Source: a virus
Taxonomy: Duplodnaviria; Heunggongvirae; Uroviricota; Caudoviricetes
Length of the DNA: 64,000 nt
Reading direction: 5' to 3' (one strand)
Virus record (IMG/VR): IMGVR_UViG_3300028534_000514
Span: 64,001 to 128,000 of that record
In this document: piece by piece, positions 7,250 through 52,293 of the stretch
Layout of the letters: every line of letters begins with the position of its first letter
Numbering within the stretch: the first letter of the stretch is position 1
The notes under the pieces: generated by a model
The model's database searches: none
Seen by the model: the letters and a program-made list of their open reading frames with translations, nothing else
What the model was told of the DNA's origin: nothing
Translations under genes and position numbers: made by a program

Positions 7250-7582
7250 ATGGATTTTTTATTAAAATTTTTACCGTCTAGTTCATTATTAAAATTAGGC
7301 GGGGTTCTGTTAATAATAAGCTCTTTGGGGTATTTTTTATGGGACTGGCATTACTCAGTTATAAATGATTTAAATCGAGCAATTGCTCAAAAGGAGCAAT
7401 TGCTCGAAAAGAGCAAAGCCAATTTAAAAGAGGTACTAAAAGAAAATAAATTATTAGAGAGCAACCTCAAAACCGTTGGTTCCGAACTCAACATATGCAA
7501 ATTAGAAATGGATGCATATGATGAAACGGATATTAATTTTAACCCGAAGGATACAGAAGATGAAAACTATTTTGTATATTAG
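7250..7582 (+). CDS. i-spanin (Rz-like)
   Basis: N-terminal TM helix then coiled coil; overlaps the downstream lipoprotein gene. Confidence 0.65.
   Translation: MDFLLKFLPSSSLLKLGGVLLIISSLGYFLWDWHYSVINDLNRAIAQKEQLLEKSKANLKEVLKENKLLESNLKTVGSELNICKLEMDAYDETDINFNPKDTEDENYFVY
7377..7417. repeat. 17-bp-period GAGCAATTGCTC palindrome array, site A (inside a CDS)
   Basis: Units start at 7377, 7394 and 7411, separated by 5-bp A-rich spacers. Confidence 0.9.
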
Positions 7583-46210: not shown

Positions 46211-46652
46211 GTTCTCTAGCCTCTGCCTCCTTTCTTTTTTTTTCACGGAAGGCCTCCTCCCCAAATATTTGGATATAGGAGTAATCCTCCTTTGTCAAAA
46301 TATCCTTTTTCTTGGGCTCCATGAAATGTTCCCCATCCCATTGATATCCCAAAAATTCGAGATGATCCAGAATGGCATTTCCAACTGCCCACATTAAGGA
46401 AGTTTCTCTTTTTAATTCACTCATGAATTGAAAGAGACGAGGATATAAATTGCTCGCAGCGTACTCATGCTCGGCTCGGCCGGCTTCGTGAGTACGCTTA
46501 TCCTCAGAGTAGGTTAACCCTCGGGCAACTAACACGGTCATAATTGCATTGACCGCGTTTTTTATCTTATTTAGGTCACCATCTGTCATCTGTTCTATGA
46601 CAGGGTGACCTTTAATTATCGCTGCCAAATTCTCTCGAGTGAAATTAGACAT
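46191..46652 (-). CDS. Hypothetical protein
   Basis: RBS GAGGTG, coupled to the MYG1 gene. Confidence 0.7.
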   Translation of the reverse strand: MSNFTRENLAAIIKGHPVIEQMTDGDLNKIKNAVNAIMTVLVARGLTYSEDKRTHEAGRAEHEYAASNLYPRLFQFMSELKRETSLMWAVGNAILDHLEFLGYQWDGEHFMEPKKKDILTKEDYSYIQIFGEEAFREKKRKEAEARERPNPWA

Positions 46653-47520
46653 ATTTCACCTCCTCGAGAACAAGATCCTGAATGATTCCGTTCCACTTAG
46701 CCTCGTCCCAAACAGCGAAGAAGCCGTTCTTATGAACGAACTTCGCCCCGTGGCTTTCAGGCGAGATCTTAAGGTAATCGGTGTTAACCGTCACCTTGAT
46801 CTCGTTGGTCTGGTGATCATGAAAGATGGATCCCCAGACATCGTCCCCGTGGACAGCTGTCAGGTTGTTTAACCCAACATACTTATCCACCGCGGCGAAC
46901 TTCGCCTGAAGACGACCACCATCAACGTCAACACCGATGATCTCTGCCTTCTCGGAGCGCGCCTTGAGAATCTCTTCTTTAGTCTCGCGGGCTTCGGCAG
47001 CCGCTTCAGCAAGACGATCGAAGATTTCGCCCTTCGGGCCATGAATATTGTAGTCCCGGATACCCTCAAGGATATCTCGAGCAAAGTGTAGCGATCTATA
47101 GAACGCTCGCGATTGCTCAATTCCCTGAATATCCAAATCATTAAGATCAGAGATCCATCCAAGGATTTCATCCCACGGGCTCTTGGGATTGTATCCCACT
47201 CTCGTATCCCGTGCATCAACTGCACGGACCAACTCCCAAATAAGGGAGGGGACTTCATCCTCCTCCCAGAGCCAGTGGGCGATCAACCCGAAAGCCGATC
47301 GCCCATGGACGTCTGGACCATCTTGATGATGGTCGAACCTCATCCTGTCGGGGTCGTACTCCATCCCGACATCGACGACGATATCGCAGTCGTCGATGAT
47401 GTCTTGACATCGCGTTCGAACGATATCAAGACCGAAACCAGCGAGCTCAAGTCCCGCTAGTGCGAAGAGCTCATCCGGATGAAAAATCCCCGGATGAGTT
47501 GCTGTTGTAACTGTTTTCAT
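46645..47520 (-). CDS. MYG1 (UPF0160) family DHH exonuclease
   Basis: THPGIFHPDELFA, DIVRTR, IVVDVGMEYDP..RFDHHQ, FVHKNGFFA. Confidence 0.9.
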   Translation of the reverse strand: MKTVTTATHPGIFHPDELFALAGLELAGFGLDIVRTRCQDIIDDCDIVVDVGMEYDPDRMRFDHHQDGPDVHGRSAFGLIAHWLWEEDEVPSLIWELVRAVDARDTRVGYNPKSPWDEILGWISDLNDLDIQGIEQSRAFYRSLHFARDILEGIRDYNIHGPKGEIFDRLAEAAAEARETKEEILKARSEKAEIIGVDVDGGRLQAKFAAVDKYVGLNNLTAVHGDDVWGSIFHDHQTNEIKVTVNTDYLKISPESHGAKFVHKNGFFAVWDEAKWNGIIQDLVLEEVKYV

Positions 47521-47700
47521 AATATCTCCTTTTGAATTATGGGGACTTTAACCCTGTTCCAGCCGGCTTTTCAACCAGCGCTTTATAGCCGAGCCCGACC
47601 GCGGTTCGGGACTAGTTTTGGCGGGGAATAGAATTTACTATTCCCAGCTTGGGTCTTCACCCTACTCAAAGAGATCAAAAGAATATTTTGATTCCCTTCA
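47521..47700 (-). ncRNA. ~180-nt GC-rich multi-hairpin leader of the MYG1 gene
   Basis: Stems GGGAAUAG/CUAUUCCC, GGGU-GAAG-ACCC, CCCGA/UCGGG and GCUGGUU-GAAA-AGCCGGC. Confidence 0.6.
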
Positions 47701-47703
47701 ATG

Positions 47704-47738
47704 TTAATATATTTATAGTTTTTTACTTTATTCTAAAG
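47704..47738 (-). promoter_or_regulatory. Putative early promoter
   Basis: CTTTAGAATAAAGTAAAAAACTATAAATATATTAA. Confidence 0.75.
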
Positions 47739-47805
47739 TAAAACAATAGTATAAATATCCCCAAAAAAAATCTTTAAAGAAATTCTAGCTAGGTAAAATT
47801 TAAAT

Positions 47806-47841
47806 GACAGGAAAATGGAAGGTCAATCGACCTTCCATTTT
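47806..47841 (-). terminator. Hairpin terminator with CCTGTC tail on the minus strand
   Basis: AAAATGGAAGGTC-GATT-GACCTTCCATTTT-CCTGTC read on the minus strand. Confidence 0.8.
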
Positions 47842-48200
47842 TACCAACTTGTAAAATCCATAGCAGGAGTTGATTCGGTTGGTGTCTCTTCCTTTTCTTC
47901 TGGCTTGCTCTTTTCGAGCAATTGCTCCTTTTGAGCAAAGCTTTTAAATTCATCCTTTACAAAATAATCCCAAAAATCTTCAGATTCTGCAAATTTTTTG
48001 ATAGCGATATTAATCATTGCAGATGCCATTTCCGGATGAACCATCTGGATGTACTCAAGAACTTTAATATCCGCAGTAAATGTCGCGGAATTAGACGGTG
48101 CAGGGGACTGTTGCGCCTGTTGTTGAGGCGGCATTGGTTGTCCCATAGGTTGTTGTTGTTGTTGTTGTGGAACGTATCCACCCCCATCATGAAATTGCAT
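47841..48200 (-). CDS. Small protein with a Gln/Pro-rich N-terminus and a possible ribbon-helix-helix (ParR-like) domain
   Basis: ATFTADIKVLEYIQMVHPEMASAMINIAIKKF beta-alpha-alpha pattern; same operon as parM. Confidence 0.45.
   Translation of the reverse strand: MQFHDGGGYVPQQQQQQPMGQPMPPQQQAQQSPAPSNSATFTADIKVLEYIQMVHPEMASAMINIAIKKFAESEDFWDYFVKDEFKSFAQKEQLLEKSKPEEKEETPTESTPAMDFTSW
47905..47943. repeat. GAGCAATTGCTC array, site F (inside a CDS)
   Basis: 47905-47938 is the exact reverse complement of 7383-7416. Confidence 0.9.
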
Positions 48201-48753
48201 GTATTTCCTCCAGTTTATTTTTTATTTCTTCAGTATTAAACGCTTCGATTAAAAAATCTTCTTTAATATTATCTATTTGGGTTTCACTGACATGAACGTC
48301 ATTATTTTTTGGAAGATTCTTATTTACCATTTTAATAATAAATAATTCATATCCATAGTCTTCTGCAAATTTGCGTAAAGCAGCCTCTTCATTGGTATAT
48401 CTTAAATCTGTTACTAAAACATAGTCTGGCTTTAAATTTTCTATAAAGTCTTGGGTTCTTGTTAGAGTTAAATTAACCCATATATTTTCCCCAATATAAG
48501 TTTTAATTGCTTCCCCCAATTGCTGATACACTTCCCGGAGGGTTAATCCATTAAAAGGTTTTATATCCATCCGTTTAATTAAATCCGCTTGGGAATTTTT
48601 TATACCAAAACTATCATGAATTATATTTTTAAGAATATCAGCGAAGGATACCTCGATAATTAAAGCATTTTTTCTTTCAAGTTTATCACGTAGATATTCC
48701 GCGGCAGTATTTTTACCCGAACCTTTAGCACCGGTAAAAGCTATAATTTTCAT
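48187..48753 (-). CDS. Deoxynucleoside monophosphate kinase
   Basis: IIAFTGAKGSGKNT P-loop, FADILK, REVYQQLGE, VTDLRYTNE. Confidence 0.9.
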   Translation of the reverse strand: MKIIAFTGAKGSGKNTAAEYLRDKLERKNALIIEVSFADILKNIIHDSFGIKNSQADLIKRMDIKPFNGLTLREVYQQLGEAIKTYIGENIWVNLTLTRTQDFIENLKPDYVLVTDLRYTNEEAALRKFAEDYGYELFIIKMVNKNLPKNNDVHVSETQIDNIKEDFLIEAFNTEEIKNKLEEIHAIS

Positions 48754-49658
48754 TATATGACCCCACTAATATTTCCAAATTCATATGGTTTATCGGTAAA
48801 AATAACATTTGGAGGAAAAGCAATGCCTTCTAAGAGATAGCAACCCCCACCAGCTAAAATTACTTTTTCAGAAGTAGCCAATATCTTTTTTTCTCCTGTT
48901 AAAACAGAAGAAAATAATTTTTTTACGAATTGGGATTTAAGCTCTGTAATTTTTTCGGTAACCTGGGGTTGTTCTGCTCCATTAAAAATAAATTTATTAT
49001 TCATAAAAATTTTAAGGGCTTCTGCTTCTCCAAAAGGCATATTAAATGTTGATTCAAGATATGTTGCGAACGGGCGAAGAATACTCGATACCCCATGTCC
49101 ACTATAACCTTTTGAATGAGCTTTTTTTGGTTGGCCATTTTCATAAACCAGGAAATTAATGGTATTAAATCCAATATCGATGATTGCTGCTGAACTCGGG
49201 TGCACTCCATTTTTTCCTACAAATTGCATATATGCCCCAGCACCCTGCGGAAGTAGGGTAATATTATCAAATTTCAATTGATTACCATTTACTTCAAAAG
49301 AAGAAAGCACTTTTAAATATTCGTCTTTATGTTTCCAGTCGGCTAAAGCTAATGTTAAAAATAATTCAACATTACCCGATACAGCATCCTCCACTAAATT
49401 TAATTTTTTAAGTACATGATAAATAATTACAGGATCAAATTGTTGTTTAAATCCGAAATCTGTTGTTGTAAAAGTCTCTAATCCGACTGCAGCTTCACCA
49501 ACGTAATAGGTTTCTCCTTTATATTTAACTACATCATCCTCCCCATAATCAATTCCCAAATCGGTGGCAAAAGCAATAGCCGAAGGGAAACGATAAAGCT
49601 TTCCTTCGTATTTAACCTTAGTAGAACTATACCCTATATCGGCAGCTAATTTTTTCAT
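48753..49658 (-). CDS. parM: ParM/StbA-family actin-like ATPase
   Basis: AADIGYSSTK (phosphate 1), PQGAGA (connect 1), IIDIGFNTIN (phosphate 2), ILAGGG (adenosine). Confidence 0.85.
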   Translation of the reverse strand: MKKLAADIGYSSTKVKYEGKLYRFPSAIAFATDLGIDYGEDDVVKYKGETYYVGEAAVGLETFTTTDFGFKQQFDPVIIYHVLKKLNLVEDAVSGNVELFLTLALADWKHKDEYLKVLSSFEVNGNQLKFDNITLLPQGAGAYMQFVGKNGVHPSSAAIIDIGFNTINFLVYENGQPKKAHSKGYSGHGVSSILRPFATYLESTFNMPFGEAEALKIFMNNKFIFNGAEQPQVTEKITELKSQFVKKLFSSVLTGEKKILATSEKVILAGGGCYLLEGIAFPPNVIFTDKPYEFGNISGVI

Positions 49659-49691: not shown

Positions 49692-50075
49692 TTATTTTAT
49701 TTCTTTTATTTCTAAACTAAAAAGTTCACCGGAGGTTCGTAACCACTTTCGTATTATATTAAGTGCCTCTTCATATTGATCACAAAGTGATTCTTCAATA
49801 ACCAAAGATTTACTTCTATATAGATTATTAAACCACTCCTGAATATTTTCAATTTCCTCAATAAATTCAATAAATTCGGTTATCTTTTCCTTTTCAAGAG
49901 TTTGAAGAATTTTAGCTGAACCGCTGGCAGATATTATAAAATCTAAATCCAAGCTTTTTAACTCATCATTCTCAGTAAGAATAATCTGCGCTAAAAATTC
50001 TTTATTTTTTTCAATATCAAATATCAATGAACCTCCTTTAAACGATGAAATCTTTTTCGAAATTCTTTTGGCCAT
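49692..50075 (-). CDS. Hypothetical protein
   Basis: Operonic ORF. Confidence 0.6.
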   Translation of the reverse strand: MAKRISKKISSFKGGSLIFDIEKNKEFLAQIILTENDELKSLDLDFIISASGSAKILQTLEKEKITEFIEFIEEIENIQEWFNNLYRSKSLVIEESLCDQYEEALNIIRKWLRTSGELFSLEIKEIK

Positions 50076-50560
50076 TTATCTACAGCAGCATATAAATCCA
50101 CTTTATTTTCAGTAAATTGTTTTCTTAAGAAATTCATATTATTAAAAAATTCTTTTTCGGAGGCGTAGCCATAATAATGAGGATTTATTGACCAATTATA
50201 TAATAAATCAATAACCTGCTTCATTTTTTCATAATGCCAATTATTATTTAACATTATAAAGGTGAACGGACCAATATATTGCCAATCAAGAATTATATTG
50301 CATTGTTTATAAATTATCTTTTGCATCTCTGGATTGGGCTCAGAGCAATTGCACCAGTAACTTAAATTAACAAGTTTAATATAATTTGTATAAAGTTGTT
50401 TTTTGAATTCTTTTGACATTTCCTGTTTAGTTAGGTACATATAAAGCTCTTTTAGAAAAATATATTCCAATTCATTCATTGGACTATATTTTCCAGTTCT
50501 CTCTATATATTTAGACATACGTGTTTCTAATTTCCATTTTGTCCATTTCGTCGTACTCAT
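50024..50560 (-). CDS. Hypothetical protein
   Basis: Start coupled to the helicase stop. Confidence 0.6.
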   Translation of the reverse strand: MSTTKWTKWKLETRMSKYIERTGKYSPMNELEYIFLKELYMYLTKQEMSKEFKKQLYTNYIKLVNLSYWCNCSEPNPEMQKIIYKQCNIILDWQYIGPFTFIMLNNNWHYEKMKQVIDLLYNWSINPHYYGYASEKEFFNNMNFLRKQFTENKVDLYAAVDKWPKEFRKRFHRLKEVH

Positions 50561-52293
50561 GATTGAAATCCTATATATTTAAATTTGGCTTCCGGATATT
50601 GGACCTTTATATTGTTCGTTAGTATAATACCAGTACTCTTTTTAAAATCAATAAAAGGACTAGGGATAAAATATTGAACCAGTGGTTTCTGTTTCCCTTC
50701 ATGTATTCTAGTTATTCTTCCAATTGATTGTATTACCGAAATTTTTCCAATACGGGGTGCTCCACCAAATATAATATTACTTAACTGGCTTTTATCGAAT
50801 CCGGCGCTAAGTAAATTATAGTTTGAAATAATAATATCGGATTCACGAACCTTTTGTTTATATAGATCCAAAGCATGCTCTTTTAAATATTCGATATGTT
50901 CGTCTATCTCTTTTCGCCGCGCTTTAATCTTTTGATTGGCTTCTTTACGTTTAAGTTCCTTACTTTTAACCAGAGCATCGAGTTCTTCTTTGTACTCTTT
51001 GTAAGAACCCATAATCTCCTTTCTAGCTTCTTTGACAAGATCCATTGCATCCTGCTTTGTCTTACCTTTAAGGAGTAGGACTTTATCGGCAATTGAAGGA
51101 TGCCGTTTATGAATTTCATTTTGTAATTTCTCCATAAGTGCTATTGTAGAAAACAATACAACTATATTATGCCCTTGAGTATAATTCCAATTAACAATAT
51201 CAGCAAGGTATTCAAAATACTGATGTTTTGATTTCATCATTGAATTAAACATACCTAAAAACATGGTATAATCCGCTCCTAATGAAACCAGTCTCTTGGT
51301 TTCAGCTTCTGTGAATGGCACGAATACACTATGTATTTCAATGTCAGGAACTAGATTCTGATGTTCGACTACATATATAGTTTCCCCAATCGAGGTTTTT
51401 AATAAATAGTCATTTAAACCAACTCTATAAGGGGTCGCACTTAACCCAAGAATAAAAGGAGTTAAAAATATACTAGAGGTCTTAGCGTATGATGTTGCAG
51501 CACCACTGTTATGGCATTCATCATAAACAATCAATTCCTTAAATTTATAGAAAGAAAGAAGTTCGTGGAATTTATTTCTTTTTATTTGACTAAAAAGAGA
51601 TTGTATTTTAATAATTGAAATTGGTTTTTCAATTGCATCTTGATTCGCTTTAAGATTAGAACCTTGAATTATTCCTATATCATCTTCGGTTAAATTAGTA
51701 AATTGTAATATCGCTTCAACCCATTGATCTTGAAGAACCTCATTTGGAACAATAATGAGACCTTGAGCTCGTAATCTCGATATCAATGTGATCGACATAG
51801 CAGTCTTGCCCACACCGGGTGCAGCTTGTAATACTCCGTGTAGTCGAGTTTTTTCATTAAGTTCAGCAATAAAAAAATCAAGTACTGGTTCTTGCTCAGG
51901 TCTCAGTTCAAATCCATCAATTAATTTGACCGGATGTTGATCTGATAAACGTCTGCTTTCAAACATAAATTTATAGTCCCTCGAGGTATTTAAGTCTTTT
52001 AATCTATTTTCGAGATTAATAGTCGGACTAAATTGATCTGGAATTGTATCTTTGTGCGTCTCCCAAAAGAATCTGGGAAGTAGCACAAAACTCGGAGTTA
52101 TATTTTCAATTTCTTTTCTTTCAAGATAATCAAGATAATCTTTTTTTTCATCAAAAAAAACAACTATCTCATCTAGCTCTTCCTCCGAGAATTGGGTATA
52201 GCCTTTGGTTAAATTACAAAACTGTTTTAAAAATTGCCATTCATTATATGTTACTATATTTGGAATATCATATTCCGAAGTAGTATTAGTCAT
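50557..52293 (-). CDS. Superfamily II DNA helicase (UvsW/ResIII-like)
   Basis: AAPGVGKT, VYDECH, GLSATPYR, LSAGFD, IQSIGRITR. Confidence 0.9.
   Translation of the reverse strand: MTNTTSEYDIPNIVTYNEWQFLKQFCNLTKGYTQFSEEELDEIVVFFDEKKDYLDYLERKEIENITPSFVLLPRFFWETHKDTIPDQFSPTINLENRLKDLNTSRDYKFMFESRRLSDQHPVKLIDGFELRPEQEPVLDFFIAELNEKTRLHGVLQAAPGVGKTAMSITLISRLRAQGLIIVPNEVLQDQWVEAILQFTNLTEDDIGIIQGSNLKANQDAIEKPISIIKIQSLFSQIKRNKFHELLSFYKFKELIVYDECHNSGAATSYAKTSSIFLTPFILGLSATPYRVGLNDYLLKTSIGETIYVVEHQNLVPDIEIHSVFVPFTEAETKRLVSLGADYTMFLGMFNSMMKSKHQYFEYLADIVNWNYTQGHNIVVLFSTIALMEKLQNEIHKRHPSIADKVLLLKGKTKQDAMDLVKEARKEIMGSYKEYKEELDALVKSKELKRKEANQKIKARRKEIDEHIEYLKEHALDLYKQKVRESDIIISNYNLLSAGFDKSQLSNIIFGGAPRIGKISVIQSIGRITRIHEGKQKPLVQYFIPSPFIDFKKSTGIILTNNIKVQYPEAKFKYIGFQS

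Follow-up and report, generated by a model that had tools for sequence, protein, structure and literature searches.

A 301-aa actin-like ATPase of the ParM/Alp family and a small acidic protein of a previously undescribed family are encoded together in the replication operon of a 281-kb jumbo phage genome, and the synteny between the two is conserved throughout a whole phage clade. The two genes likely constitute an actin-plus-adaptor module, whose closest counterparts are AlpAC of prophage CGP3 and ParMR. We tentatively favor the reading that this is a two-component actin system of a nucleus-free, lytic-type jumbo phage and that the pair positions or moves replicating genomes. The module lies in the window, a stretch of 64,000 nucleotides (positions 64,001 to 128,000 of IMG/VR record IMGVR_UViG_3300028534_000514), to which the coordinates below refer. 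The locus bears on how giant phages that build no chimallin nucleus organize their replication and packaging inside the cell.

The product of the gene at 48753-49658 (minus strand) belongs to the ParM/Alp actin family. It matches Pfam ALP_N (PF17989; 2.1e-13, 51.2 bits vs. a cut-off of 26.3) and MreB-like_C (PF21522; 1.7e-08, 35.5 bits vs. a cut-off of 27.8) as well as PHROG 691 'partition protein' (5e-28). When a profile built from 39 ParM-like homologues was compared with the PDB, pCBH ParM was found at 2e-16, and Alp12, CBg-ParM, AlfA and Ta0583 were matched as well. Among these homologues, D7, G9, K14, Q138, G163 and G270-G272 are invariant, and P137, G139, G141, D161 and T166 are kept in at least 90%; D7, G9 and K14 correspond to the phosphate-1 motif, Q138 with P137, G139 and G141 to connect-1, G163 with D161 and T166 to phosphate-2, and G270-G272 to the adenosine motif. 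A ParM/StbA-family actin with all ATPase motifs, as proposed in a preliminary description of this DNA, is thus confirmed by Pfam, PHROG, the PDB profile and motif conservation. In a six-frame search of the genome, this ORF is the sole ALP gene (53.1 bits). Identity as another member of the actin-fold superfamily, a kinase acting on sugars or nucleotides, was rejected, as all profile and PDB matches are to filament-forming ParM, Alp, AlfA and Ta0583 proteins. That possibility had been considered because of the neighboring genes and of relatives with hypermodified T.

The actin gene is followed by a dNMP kinase gene (188 aa; 48187-48753, minus strand; PF21448 DNMK, 2.3e-11; PHROG 139, 6.8e-34), whose start overlaps the parM-like stop by 1 nt, and then by the small partner gene (119 aa; 47841-48200, minus strand), which shares 14 nt with the kinase gene. 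Both the position of the 119-aa gene two genes downstream of the actin gene and the dNMP kinase gene between them agree with the preliminary description. The small gene, a candidate adaptor gene, is the final one before a terminator-like hairpin, read from the sequence directly 3' of it (47806-47838, minus strand) and followed by TTTTCCTGTC; the three overlapping genes share this one terminator at their end. In YerA41, a palindromic hairpin also stands immediately after the small gene. A search of Rfam with 47300-48000 gave no match. Upstream, between a ResIII/DEAD helicase gene (50557-52293, minus strand; PF04851, 3.3e-27; PHROG 16) and parM, two minus-strand ORFs of 127 aa (49692-50075) and 178 aa (50024-50560) have no family matches in Pfam or PHROG; jumbo relatives have an ORF of similar size in the 178-aa slot. 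The gene order, with the helicase first, then parM and then the small gene, is common to four related loci (L005, L006, L008 and L009), and the genes around the module encode helicases, a topoisomerase, an exonuclease and RecJ.

In all ten informative loci, i.e., those with enough flanking sequence (G000, L005, L006, L008, L009 of genome G001, L010, Carin-5, YerA41, L031 and L033), the small gene is located zero to two genes downstream of the ParM-like gene. The pairing persists while ParM identity falls from 100% to about 45%, and it extends to every part of the small-protein family that could be detected; contigs of matching length point to three more co-located pairs. The intervening slot is variable: it holds a dUTPase gene in Carin-5 and YerA41 and other ORFs in L010 and L031. 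In L033, the ParM-like and small genes overlap directly by 4 bp and the gene of the dNMP kinase slot is located after the small gene, and in L031 the pair stands in a different gene context. As the module lies inside a conserved replication gene block, some of the synteny could stem from a gene order that was inherited. The partner family is confined to the clade of YerA41, Carin-5 and uncultured jumbo phages; it is absent within 5 kb of the distant ParM-like genes of phages CP220, Vibrio 150E35-1 and Va1, and Rhizobium Y65. Megablast with the locus as query matched no phage, and tblastn with two of the small proteins had no hit among 50,697 phage records, so profile methods are needed to reach the relatives. 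When related loci were searched for in IMG/VR, ParM recovered nothing and the small-protein alignment recovered G001 only.

The small-protein family, with 130 cluster representatives, has no match in Pfam or PHROG, and its description at the family level is new here. In the 119-aa protein, residues 1-35 form a Q/P-rich N-terminus; a core of an extended segment and helices comes next, and an acidic linker follows on the C-terminal side. A disordered Q/P tail had been noted earlier; the Q/P-rich stretch is real, but it is N-terminal. The folded core (residues 36-72; 47985-48095, minus strand), delimited by an AF2 model and the alignment, comprises an extended segment (36-44) and two helices (45-53 and 59-71), and two more helices (74-80 and 83-97) lie beyond it. 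The model, a monomer predicted with a 96-sequence alignment, has pLDDT values of 92-97 across residues 41-90 and was used instead of one from a shallow 15-sequence alignment (pLDDT 53). Within the core, D44 is shared by all members, conservation extends to N64, I67 and K68, and the strand residues 38, 40 and 42 are polar in many members. The pI of the protein is 4.5 and that of the members measured is 4.5-5.4; in none of the latter does the core have a net positive charge, and the Carin-5 and YerA41 proteins have Glu on the presumed DNA-facing strand.

After the variable linker, an aromatic motif is kept family-wide at the C-terminus. This predicted docking motif is F-T-S-W in the present protein (47844-47855, minus strand) and has the consensus [F/W]-x-x-[W/F] in the family alignment: the last aligned position is W or F in 95 of the 96 members, position -3 is F in 65/91, and the YerA41/Carin-5 branch has a WDxF variant. 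Such an ending was sought on the other polar-tailed proteins of the genome and found on none; its uniqueness is unlike a general hub-binding tag of the clamp or SSB type. A folded N-terminal core, a disordered linker and a conserved C-terminal motif, as modeled, are the architecture expected of a ParR-like adaptor. A complex prediction for the ParM-like protein and small-protein residues 33-119 scored 0.22 vs. a mark of 0.32, which counts neither for nor against an interaction.

In the monomer model, residues 34-80 align to at least 11 ribbon-helix-helix (RHH) domains at low Z-scores (2.1-2.5), including those of the centromere-binding proteins pSK41 ParR, ParG and omega. The best rmsd, 1.8 A over 40 aa at low Z, is to pSK41 ParR (2q2k_B; PMC3074162); every structural Z-score of the protein is 3.1 or less, a range that the comparison tool calls non-diagnostic. 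Its language-model neighbors are mostly RHH-clan families, with scores of at most 0.86 that serve as leads. RHH profiles (Pfam clan Met_repress) matched none of the 96 family members at E-values up to 1, hhalign with pSK41 ParR gave a probability of 0.4% and no sequence similarity, hmmsearch of PDB sequences with the small-protein profile gave chance matches only, and Foldseek against the PDB and an Atlas shape search returned nothing meaningful. An acidic protein with Glu on the strand and a core without net positive charge is unusual for a DNA-binding RHH protein. Thus, of the beta-alpha-alpha segment for which an RHH fold had been proposed, the extended-helix-helix core stands (pLDDT above 90 over 41-90), whereas the RHH identity is weakly supported by the model, given the low Z-scores, the lack of a profile match and the acidity.

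The small gene contains, in its linker-coding part, a two-unit array of the palindrome TTGCTC-N5-GAGCAA (TTGCTCTTTTCGAGCAATTGCTCCTTTTGAGCAA; 47905-47938, unstranded), in agreement with the array reported earlier for this gene. The palindrome has 17 matches in the window vs. 2.0 expected; genome-wide, 56 units form 38 clusters vs. 0 in shuffles, and their spacing is more even than random (CV 0.68 vs. 0.98, P ~0.007). A lone palindrome with one mismatch lies among the upstream ORFs (50343-50354). The small-gene array is retained at the same place in L005, where two arrays flank parM within 2 kb, and the array-encoded AQKEQLL is invariant in 12 close homologues while the surrounding linker varies. 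Seventeen of the 38 clusters are located in the intergenic 7% of the genome, an about sixfold enrichment in gaps that is at least equally compatible with a role as operators or as regulatory sites of another kind. The distribution of the arrays does not follow that of the small-protein family: G001 (272 kb), whose small protein has a diverged strand sequence, has no TTGCTC-N5-GAGCAA site and carries instead 75 copies of another dispersed palindrome, GATCTT-N3-AAGATC; Carin-5 and YerA41 have no comparable motif and no abundant dispersed palindrome; and the L008 (21 kb) and L006 (8.7 kb) stretches contain none of the arrays. The exact array pattern matched a single 9.7-kb contig in IMG/VR. No clustered parC-like iterons were found upstream of parM or around the module at seven loci, where the sole repeat is the two-unit array in the small gene of the G000 lineage.

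Nucleus-forming phiKZ-like jumbo phages use a PhuZ tubulin spindle and a chimallin shell (PMC7950403). The preliminary description had suggested a genome search for tubulin and chimallin, and neither was found: for chimallin, phrog_4795 had no match in the genome and phmmer and tblastn with phiKZ gp054 returned nothing, with the phrog_4795 model finding phiKZ gp054 itself at 1.8e-232 as a positive control; for PhuZ/TubZ, PF00091 and phrog_4733 had no match and phmmer and tblastn with phiKZ gp039 returned nothing. An integrase was also sought in the genome, and none was detected. The closest isolates, YerA41 and Carin-5, have been propagated as plaque-forming phages (PMC7354516; PMC12686479).

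These features are compatible with the following mechanism. The ParM-like ATPase would polymerize into filaments, and the N-terminal domain of the partner, of RHH-like topology, would dimerize and bind phage DNA or other cargo. The disordered acidic linker joins this core to the C-terminal peptide, which may dock on the actin in the way that ParR binds ParM through its own C-terminal peptide. On the model of AlpC/AlpA/alpS and ParMRC, the pair would most likely move or position replicating phage genomes during infection. Of the actin-based genome positioning proposed earlier, the ParM-family actin with its conserved partner, in a genome devoid of PhuZ and chimallin, is upheld; the RHH adaptor is not established and the array centromere is not supported. 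The analysis also separates the small protein from the dispersed palindrome arrays. As the conserved pair also occurs in two cultivable phages, YerA41 of Yersinia ruckeri and Carin-5 of Cobetia marina, the positioning question is directly testable.

The distributed-centromere proposal takes the small protein as an RHH centromere-binding adaptor acting on the ~38 dispersed arrays, by which the whole 281-kb genome would be tethered to actin, and we regard it as unlikely. The arrays are real, DNA-level and evenly spaced, one of them is conserved within the adaptor gene of close relatives, L005 has its parM flanked by two, and G001, where the strand has diverged, carries a different palindrome. 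The abutting inverted 6-mers in the arrays resemble sites bound by the RHH protein omega, but their geometry fits a helix-turn-helix dimer also: 6-bp half-sites 11 bp apart from center to center are the classic arrangement for such dimers. An array would fall within a 360-bp gene by chance with a probability of ~0.05 at the genome-wide density, the intergenic bias suggests regulatory sites, the small protein is acidic, and the arrays are missing from G001, Carin-5 and YerA41, which have both ParM and the small protein. The idea of a distributed centromere is unsupported. A broader version seems quite improbable: a clade of large nucleus-free lytic phages (YerA41, Carin-5 and uncultured relatives of 235-285 kb) would segregate or position its genomes by actin, a new family of RHH-like adaptors would couple the DNA to the filament, and the adaptor of the 281-kb lineage would read its ~38 evenly spaced arrays as a distributed centromere, which is not known from any actin-based (type II) system.

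The small protein might alternatively be a dedicated actin cofactor and no DNA adaptor, nucleating, capping or destabilizing filaments or tethering protein cargo such as the replisome or nucleotide-synthesis enzymes. Its strict pairing with ParM, its acidic charge with Glu on the putative DNA-reading strand, the lack of an RHH profile signal and the frequent adjacency of dNMP kinase or dUTPase genes would suit this role, and free AlpA, which disassembles AlpC filaments (PMC5539076), illustrates that adaptors can act as regulators. We consider a pure cofactor rather unlikely, as the core is similar in topology to RHH domains that bind DNA, the conserved residues include K68 and N64, strand positions 38, 40 and 42 are polar in many members, and a nucleotide-enzyme neighbor is not universal. 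It is likewise very doubtful that the two genes are mere neighbors in a replication block, the acidic linker and aromatic end being a replisome-docking tail of the SSB, T7 gp2.5 or clamp-peptide type and the ParM-like protein being independent. The surrounding replication genes fit this idea, and the end of the small protein, P-A-M-D-F-T-S-W, recalls the C-terminal tip of SSB, M-D-F-D-D-D-I-P-F. The pairing with ParM nevertheless outlasts the reshuffling of all other neighbors, as in the direct overlap in L033 and the new context in L031, and the motif is present on no other protein of the genome, unlike typical hub-binding tags. Most improbable is a plasmid-partition cassette of the classical kind, through which the phage would persist as an extrachromosomal prophage. 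The record is labeled 'provirus' in IMG/VR and ParMR cassettes are common in phage-plasmids (PMC8026635), but integrase and parC-like iterons are lacking, the genes lie inside a replication operon, and YerA41 and Carin-5 form plaques.

That a phage actin can aid viral replication has a precedent in the CGP3 system of actin plus DNA adaptor (PMC4446434; PMC5539076). Like AlpC/AlpA/alpS of this Corynebacterium glutamicum prophage, the present module pairs a small adaptor gene with the gene of a phage-encoded actin-like ATPase, and AlpAC is a proposed mover of viral DNA that is needed for efficient viral replication, not for plasmid inheritance. The two differ in that the small protein has no detectable sequence relation to the CGP3 adaptor, its family being new, and in that CGP3, an integrated prophage, has defined alpS sites beside the genes, whereas the phage here is of 281 kb and lytic type. 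With ParMRC (R1; pSK41 ParR-DNA, 2Q2K; pCBH ParM, 6IXW), the module shares the ALP/ParM actin family, a small gene downstream, a core that superposes on pSK41 ParR (at low Z) and a disordered linker with a C-terminal peptide that could dock on the filament. Unlike ParMRC, whose iterated parC next to the operon doubles as its operator, the module shows no clustered parC on the upstream side of parM; the partner is acidic and has no RHH profile match; the replicon is not a low-copy plasmid; and one or two other genes as a rule intervene between the pair, usually including one for nucleotide metabolism.

ParM-like genes of PHROG 691 are already annotated in lytic or large phages of the Campylobacter CP220 type and of Vibrio, Rhizobium and Bacillus; the CP220, Vibrio and Rhizobium cases differ from the present module in lacking the partner family nearby. 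For the arrays, the nearest analogue of the distributed-site idea is MatP-matS. MatP is an RHH-containing protein that binds matS, a short palindrome with sites spread across an extended part of the DNA; it organizes a domain of the chromosome and has no coupling to actin. Like the PhuZ of phiKZ-type phages (PMC7950403), the ParM-like protein is a jumbo-phage cytoskeletal NTPase presumed to position replicating DNA, but it belongs to the actin rather than the tubulin superfamily, and, as PhuZ and chimallin are both missing from this genome, the DNA to be positioned would be unenclosed.

The genome containing the window encodes a single actin-like protein (ALP), a 301-aa ParM-like product at 48753-49658 on the minus strand, which scores above the cut-offs of Pfam ALP_N and MreB-like_C and is also assigned to PHROG 691 ('partition protein'). 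A profile built from 39 homologues picks out ParM-type filament proteins of solved structure: pCBH ParM at 2e-16, followed by Alp12, CBg/Cbc-ParM, AlfA, Ta0583 and CorM. Across these 39 homologues, the conserved nucleotide-binding positions are D7, G9 and K14 of phosphate 1 (invariant), Q138 of connect 1 (invariant, with P137, G139 and G141 in at least 90%), G163 of phosphate 2 (invariant, with D161 and T166 in at least 90%) and G270-G272 of the adenosine motif (invariant). The family matches and these positions bear out the preliminary description of a ParM-family actin with ATPase motifs, and the protein is predicted to polymerise. Among isolates, the closest relatives are Cobetia phage Carin-5 (50% identity; product named 'partition protein; actin-like') and Yersinia phage YerA41 (45%; product named 'DnaK-like chaperone, cd10227 ParM_like'); Campylobacter, Vibrio, Rhizobium, Acinetobacter and Ralstonia phages have remoter copies. 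Given these isolates and a large metagenomic family (267 proteins with E of at most 1e-5), it is not novel by itself for a big phage to have a ParM-like gene.

The parM-like gene, a dNMP kinase gene (48187-48753, minus strand; PF21448, PHROG 139) and a 119-aa ORF (47841-48200, minus strand) close a minus-strand gene block headed by a ResIII/DEAD helicase gene. The kinase start and the parM-like stop have one base in common, the kinase gene and the small ORF overlap by 14 nt, and a hairpin followed by TTTTCCTGTC lies directly 3' of the small gene. A MYG1/UPF0160-family gene (46645-47520, minus strand; PF03690, 1.2e-19) coincides with a local peak in G+C (44% vs ~33% for the genome). Between the promoter region and this gene is a GC-rich, strongly structured leader of ~130-160 nt (47522-47680, minus strand; MFE -57 kcal/mol, z = -3.56, with 0/200 shuffles folding equally well), for which Rfam has no match.

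The small protein falls into no Pfam or PHROG family. A word-indexed search gave 16 homologues; profile searching of 1.84 billion representatives gave 130 family members, all 59-189 aa long apart from a single protein of 1,235 aa close to the E-value cut-off. The family HMM also picks up the hypothetical proteins at the syntenic position in Carin-5 (3.6e-21) and YerA41 (4.4e-16). The Q/P-rich N-terminus is optional: the majority of the 96 aligned members have it, and the YerA41/Carin-5-type branch, including the L010 protein, lacks it. In the core, D44 is invariant and N64, I67 and K68 are conserved; the linker is variable, acidic or polar. A C-terminal aromatic residue is found in 95 of the 96 members, usually within F-x-x-W and, in the YerA41/Carin-5 branch, within W-D-x-F; this aromatic motif is absent from all other polar-tailed proteins of the genome.

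In all 10 loci that extend far enough to either side, to which the pairing count was restricted, the small gene lies downstream of a ParM-like gene. One gene intervenes in the present genome (G000), in L005, L006, L009 (from the uncultured relative G001) and L031, and in Carin-5 and YerA41; two intervene in L010 and in L008, where a homing-endonuclease gene is inserted; and none intervenes in L033, where the pair overlaps by 4 bp and is followed by the kinase gene. As L031 and L033, picked from the weakest small-protein family members (profile E ~1e-4), keep the pair in different gene contexts, the pairing outlasts all other synteny. This gene pairing is the argument that the small protein would be the partner of the actin. 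L003/L004 and L032 end at a contig edge and were left out of the count; three further parM/small-gene pairs are suggested by contigs of identical length. No member of the small-protein family was found within 5 kb of more distant phage ParM-like genes. DUF723/MUG113 homing-endonuclease-like genes are inserted around the parM module in relatives (L008 10909-11343 and 9006-9467; L003 5-1111). In L008 one of them separates parM from the kinase gene, and in L003 one adjoins the kinase or is fused to it; the L008 helicase carries a LAGLIDADG signal.

An AlphaFold2 model of the small protein using a 96-sequence alignment (mean pLDDT 81.6; 92-97 over residues 41-90) predicts an extended segment (36-44) and helices at 45-53, 59-71, 74-80 and 83-97. 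In an exhaustive structural comparison all Z values were at most 3.1. Residues 34-80 align to at least 11 ribbon-helix-helix (RHH) domains, with the best rmsd to pSK41 ParR (2q2k_B, 1.8 A over 40 aa, Z 2.5; identity checked in PMC3074162); the others are CopA_SO, ParD2, CdbA, omega, PutA, Arc, ParG, RelB, PrpA and Reg576. The language-model neighbours are the RHH-clan families RHH_1, CcdA, RHH_5, RHH_6 and MetJ, with scores of at most 0.86 that have the level of a lead only. Against an RHH reading, RHH profiles match none of the 96 members, hhalign against pSK41 ParR gives a probability of 0.4%, Foldseek and Atlas shape searches gave nothing useful, the putative DNA-contacting strand bears Glu in the Carin-5 and YerA41 proteins, and family members are acidic (pI 4.5-5.4). 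An RHH-like fold is about equally likely to be right or wrong, and DNA binding by this candidate adaptor is putative. In the RefSeq/PLSDB table the pSK41 parR gene (L050 12231-12560) bears the label 'recombinase', seemingly a mis-annotation, as its product is a centromere-binding protein that has been studied in depth.

The palindrome TTGCTC-N5-GAGCAA occurs as 56 units in 38 clusters genome-wide, vs 0 in shuffles, and abutting units create GAGCAATTGCTC. Arrays in the window lie at 7383, 23275, 28492, 31303, 36625, 47905 and 57069. The clusters are more evenly spaced than random (CV 0.68 vs 0.98, P ~0.007), and 17/38 (45%) are intergenic, with intergenic DNA making up 7% of the genome; the remaining clusters lie in coding sequence. 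The array within the small gene is kept in close relatives, the encoded AQKEQLL being invariant amid the variable linker; at genome-wide density, the chance of an array in a 360-bp gene is P ~0.05. A near-identical 34-bp array variant, TTGCTCTAATATAGCAATTGCTCTGTTTGAGCAA, occurs six times outside the window (G000:C1 148010, 149081, 246289, 260597, 268444 and 269505), several copies being inside minus-strand ORFs; these copies may mark a paralogous gene family or repeated cassette.

The earlier proposal that the arrays may serve as a distributed centromere finds no support in relatives. G001 (272.6 kb, 97% complete; ParM 50% and small protein 31% identical) has no TTGCTC-N5-GAGCAA site at up to 1 mismatch, arrays are absent from L008 (21 kb) and L006 (8.7 kb), and the complete Carin-5 and YerA41 genomes are without an abundant dispersed palindrome, their repeats being only terminator-like AGGGAGCTCCCT hairpins and an exact ~50-bp repeat. 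In seven loci the module has no parC-like iteron cluster beside it. G001 (loci L013-L026) has 75 exact copies of a different palindrome, GATCTT-N3-AAGATC, plus many 1-mismatch copies, at a median spacing of ~2.1 kb and in both genic and intergenic positions; this motif change is compatible with a co-evolving protein-site pair, in one comparison only. Since the comparative data do not tie the arrays to the small protein, the motif change is a single comparison, and half-sites with an 11-bp spacing fit helix-turn-helix dimers as well, a distributed centromere is a low-probability possibility.

Among individual repeats, a 1-mismatch GATCTT-N3-AAGATC copy lies in the linker-coding part of the G001 small partner gene (L009 11917). 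In Carin-5 (L034-L041) the exact ~50-bp element, which contains CCCAAC-N9-GTTGGG, is present 8 times, and YerA41 (L042-L049) has 9 of the AGGGAGCTCCCT hairpins, one immediately 3' of its small partner gene.

The G000 record, of which the window is bases 64001-128000, is a single sequence of 281,455 bp; its G+C content is 33%, and CheckV rates it 100% complete. Pfam Tubulin, PHROG PhuZ and PHROG chimallin have no match in this genome, and phiKZ gp039 and gp054 as queries (phmmer, tblastn) found nothing in it; as a positive control, the chimallin model recovers phiKZ gp054 at 1.8e-232. As these searches were empty, the phage is not of the chimallin/PhuZ type, as had been suspected. IMG/VR classes the record as 'provirus' (source contig 285,272 bp vs the 281,455-bp record); because no tyrosine integrase was found in the genome, this label may be a trimming artefact.

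The new elements are the small partner family with its C-terminal motif, the strict association of this family with the actin throughout a clade including two cultivable phages, and the presence of the family in jumbo phages that lack both PhuZ and chimallin. Both cultivable phages, YerA41 and Carin-5, have T-hypermodified DNA (PMC9023294, PMC12686479). In function, the closest precedent is the AlpC/AlpA/alpS system of prophage CGP3, whose actin, adaptor and DNA site promote the transport and replication of viral DNA (PMC4446434, PMC5539076), with plasmid ParMRC next.
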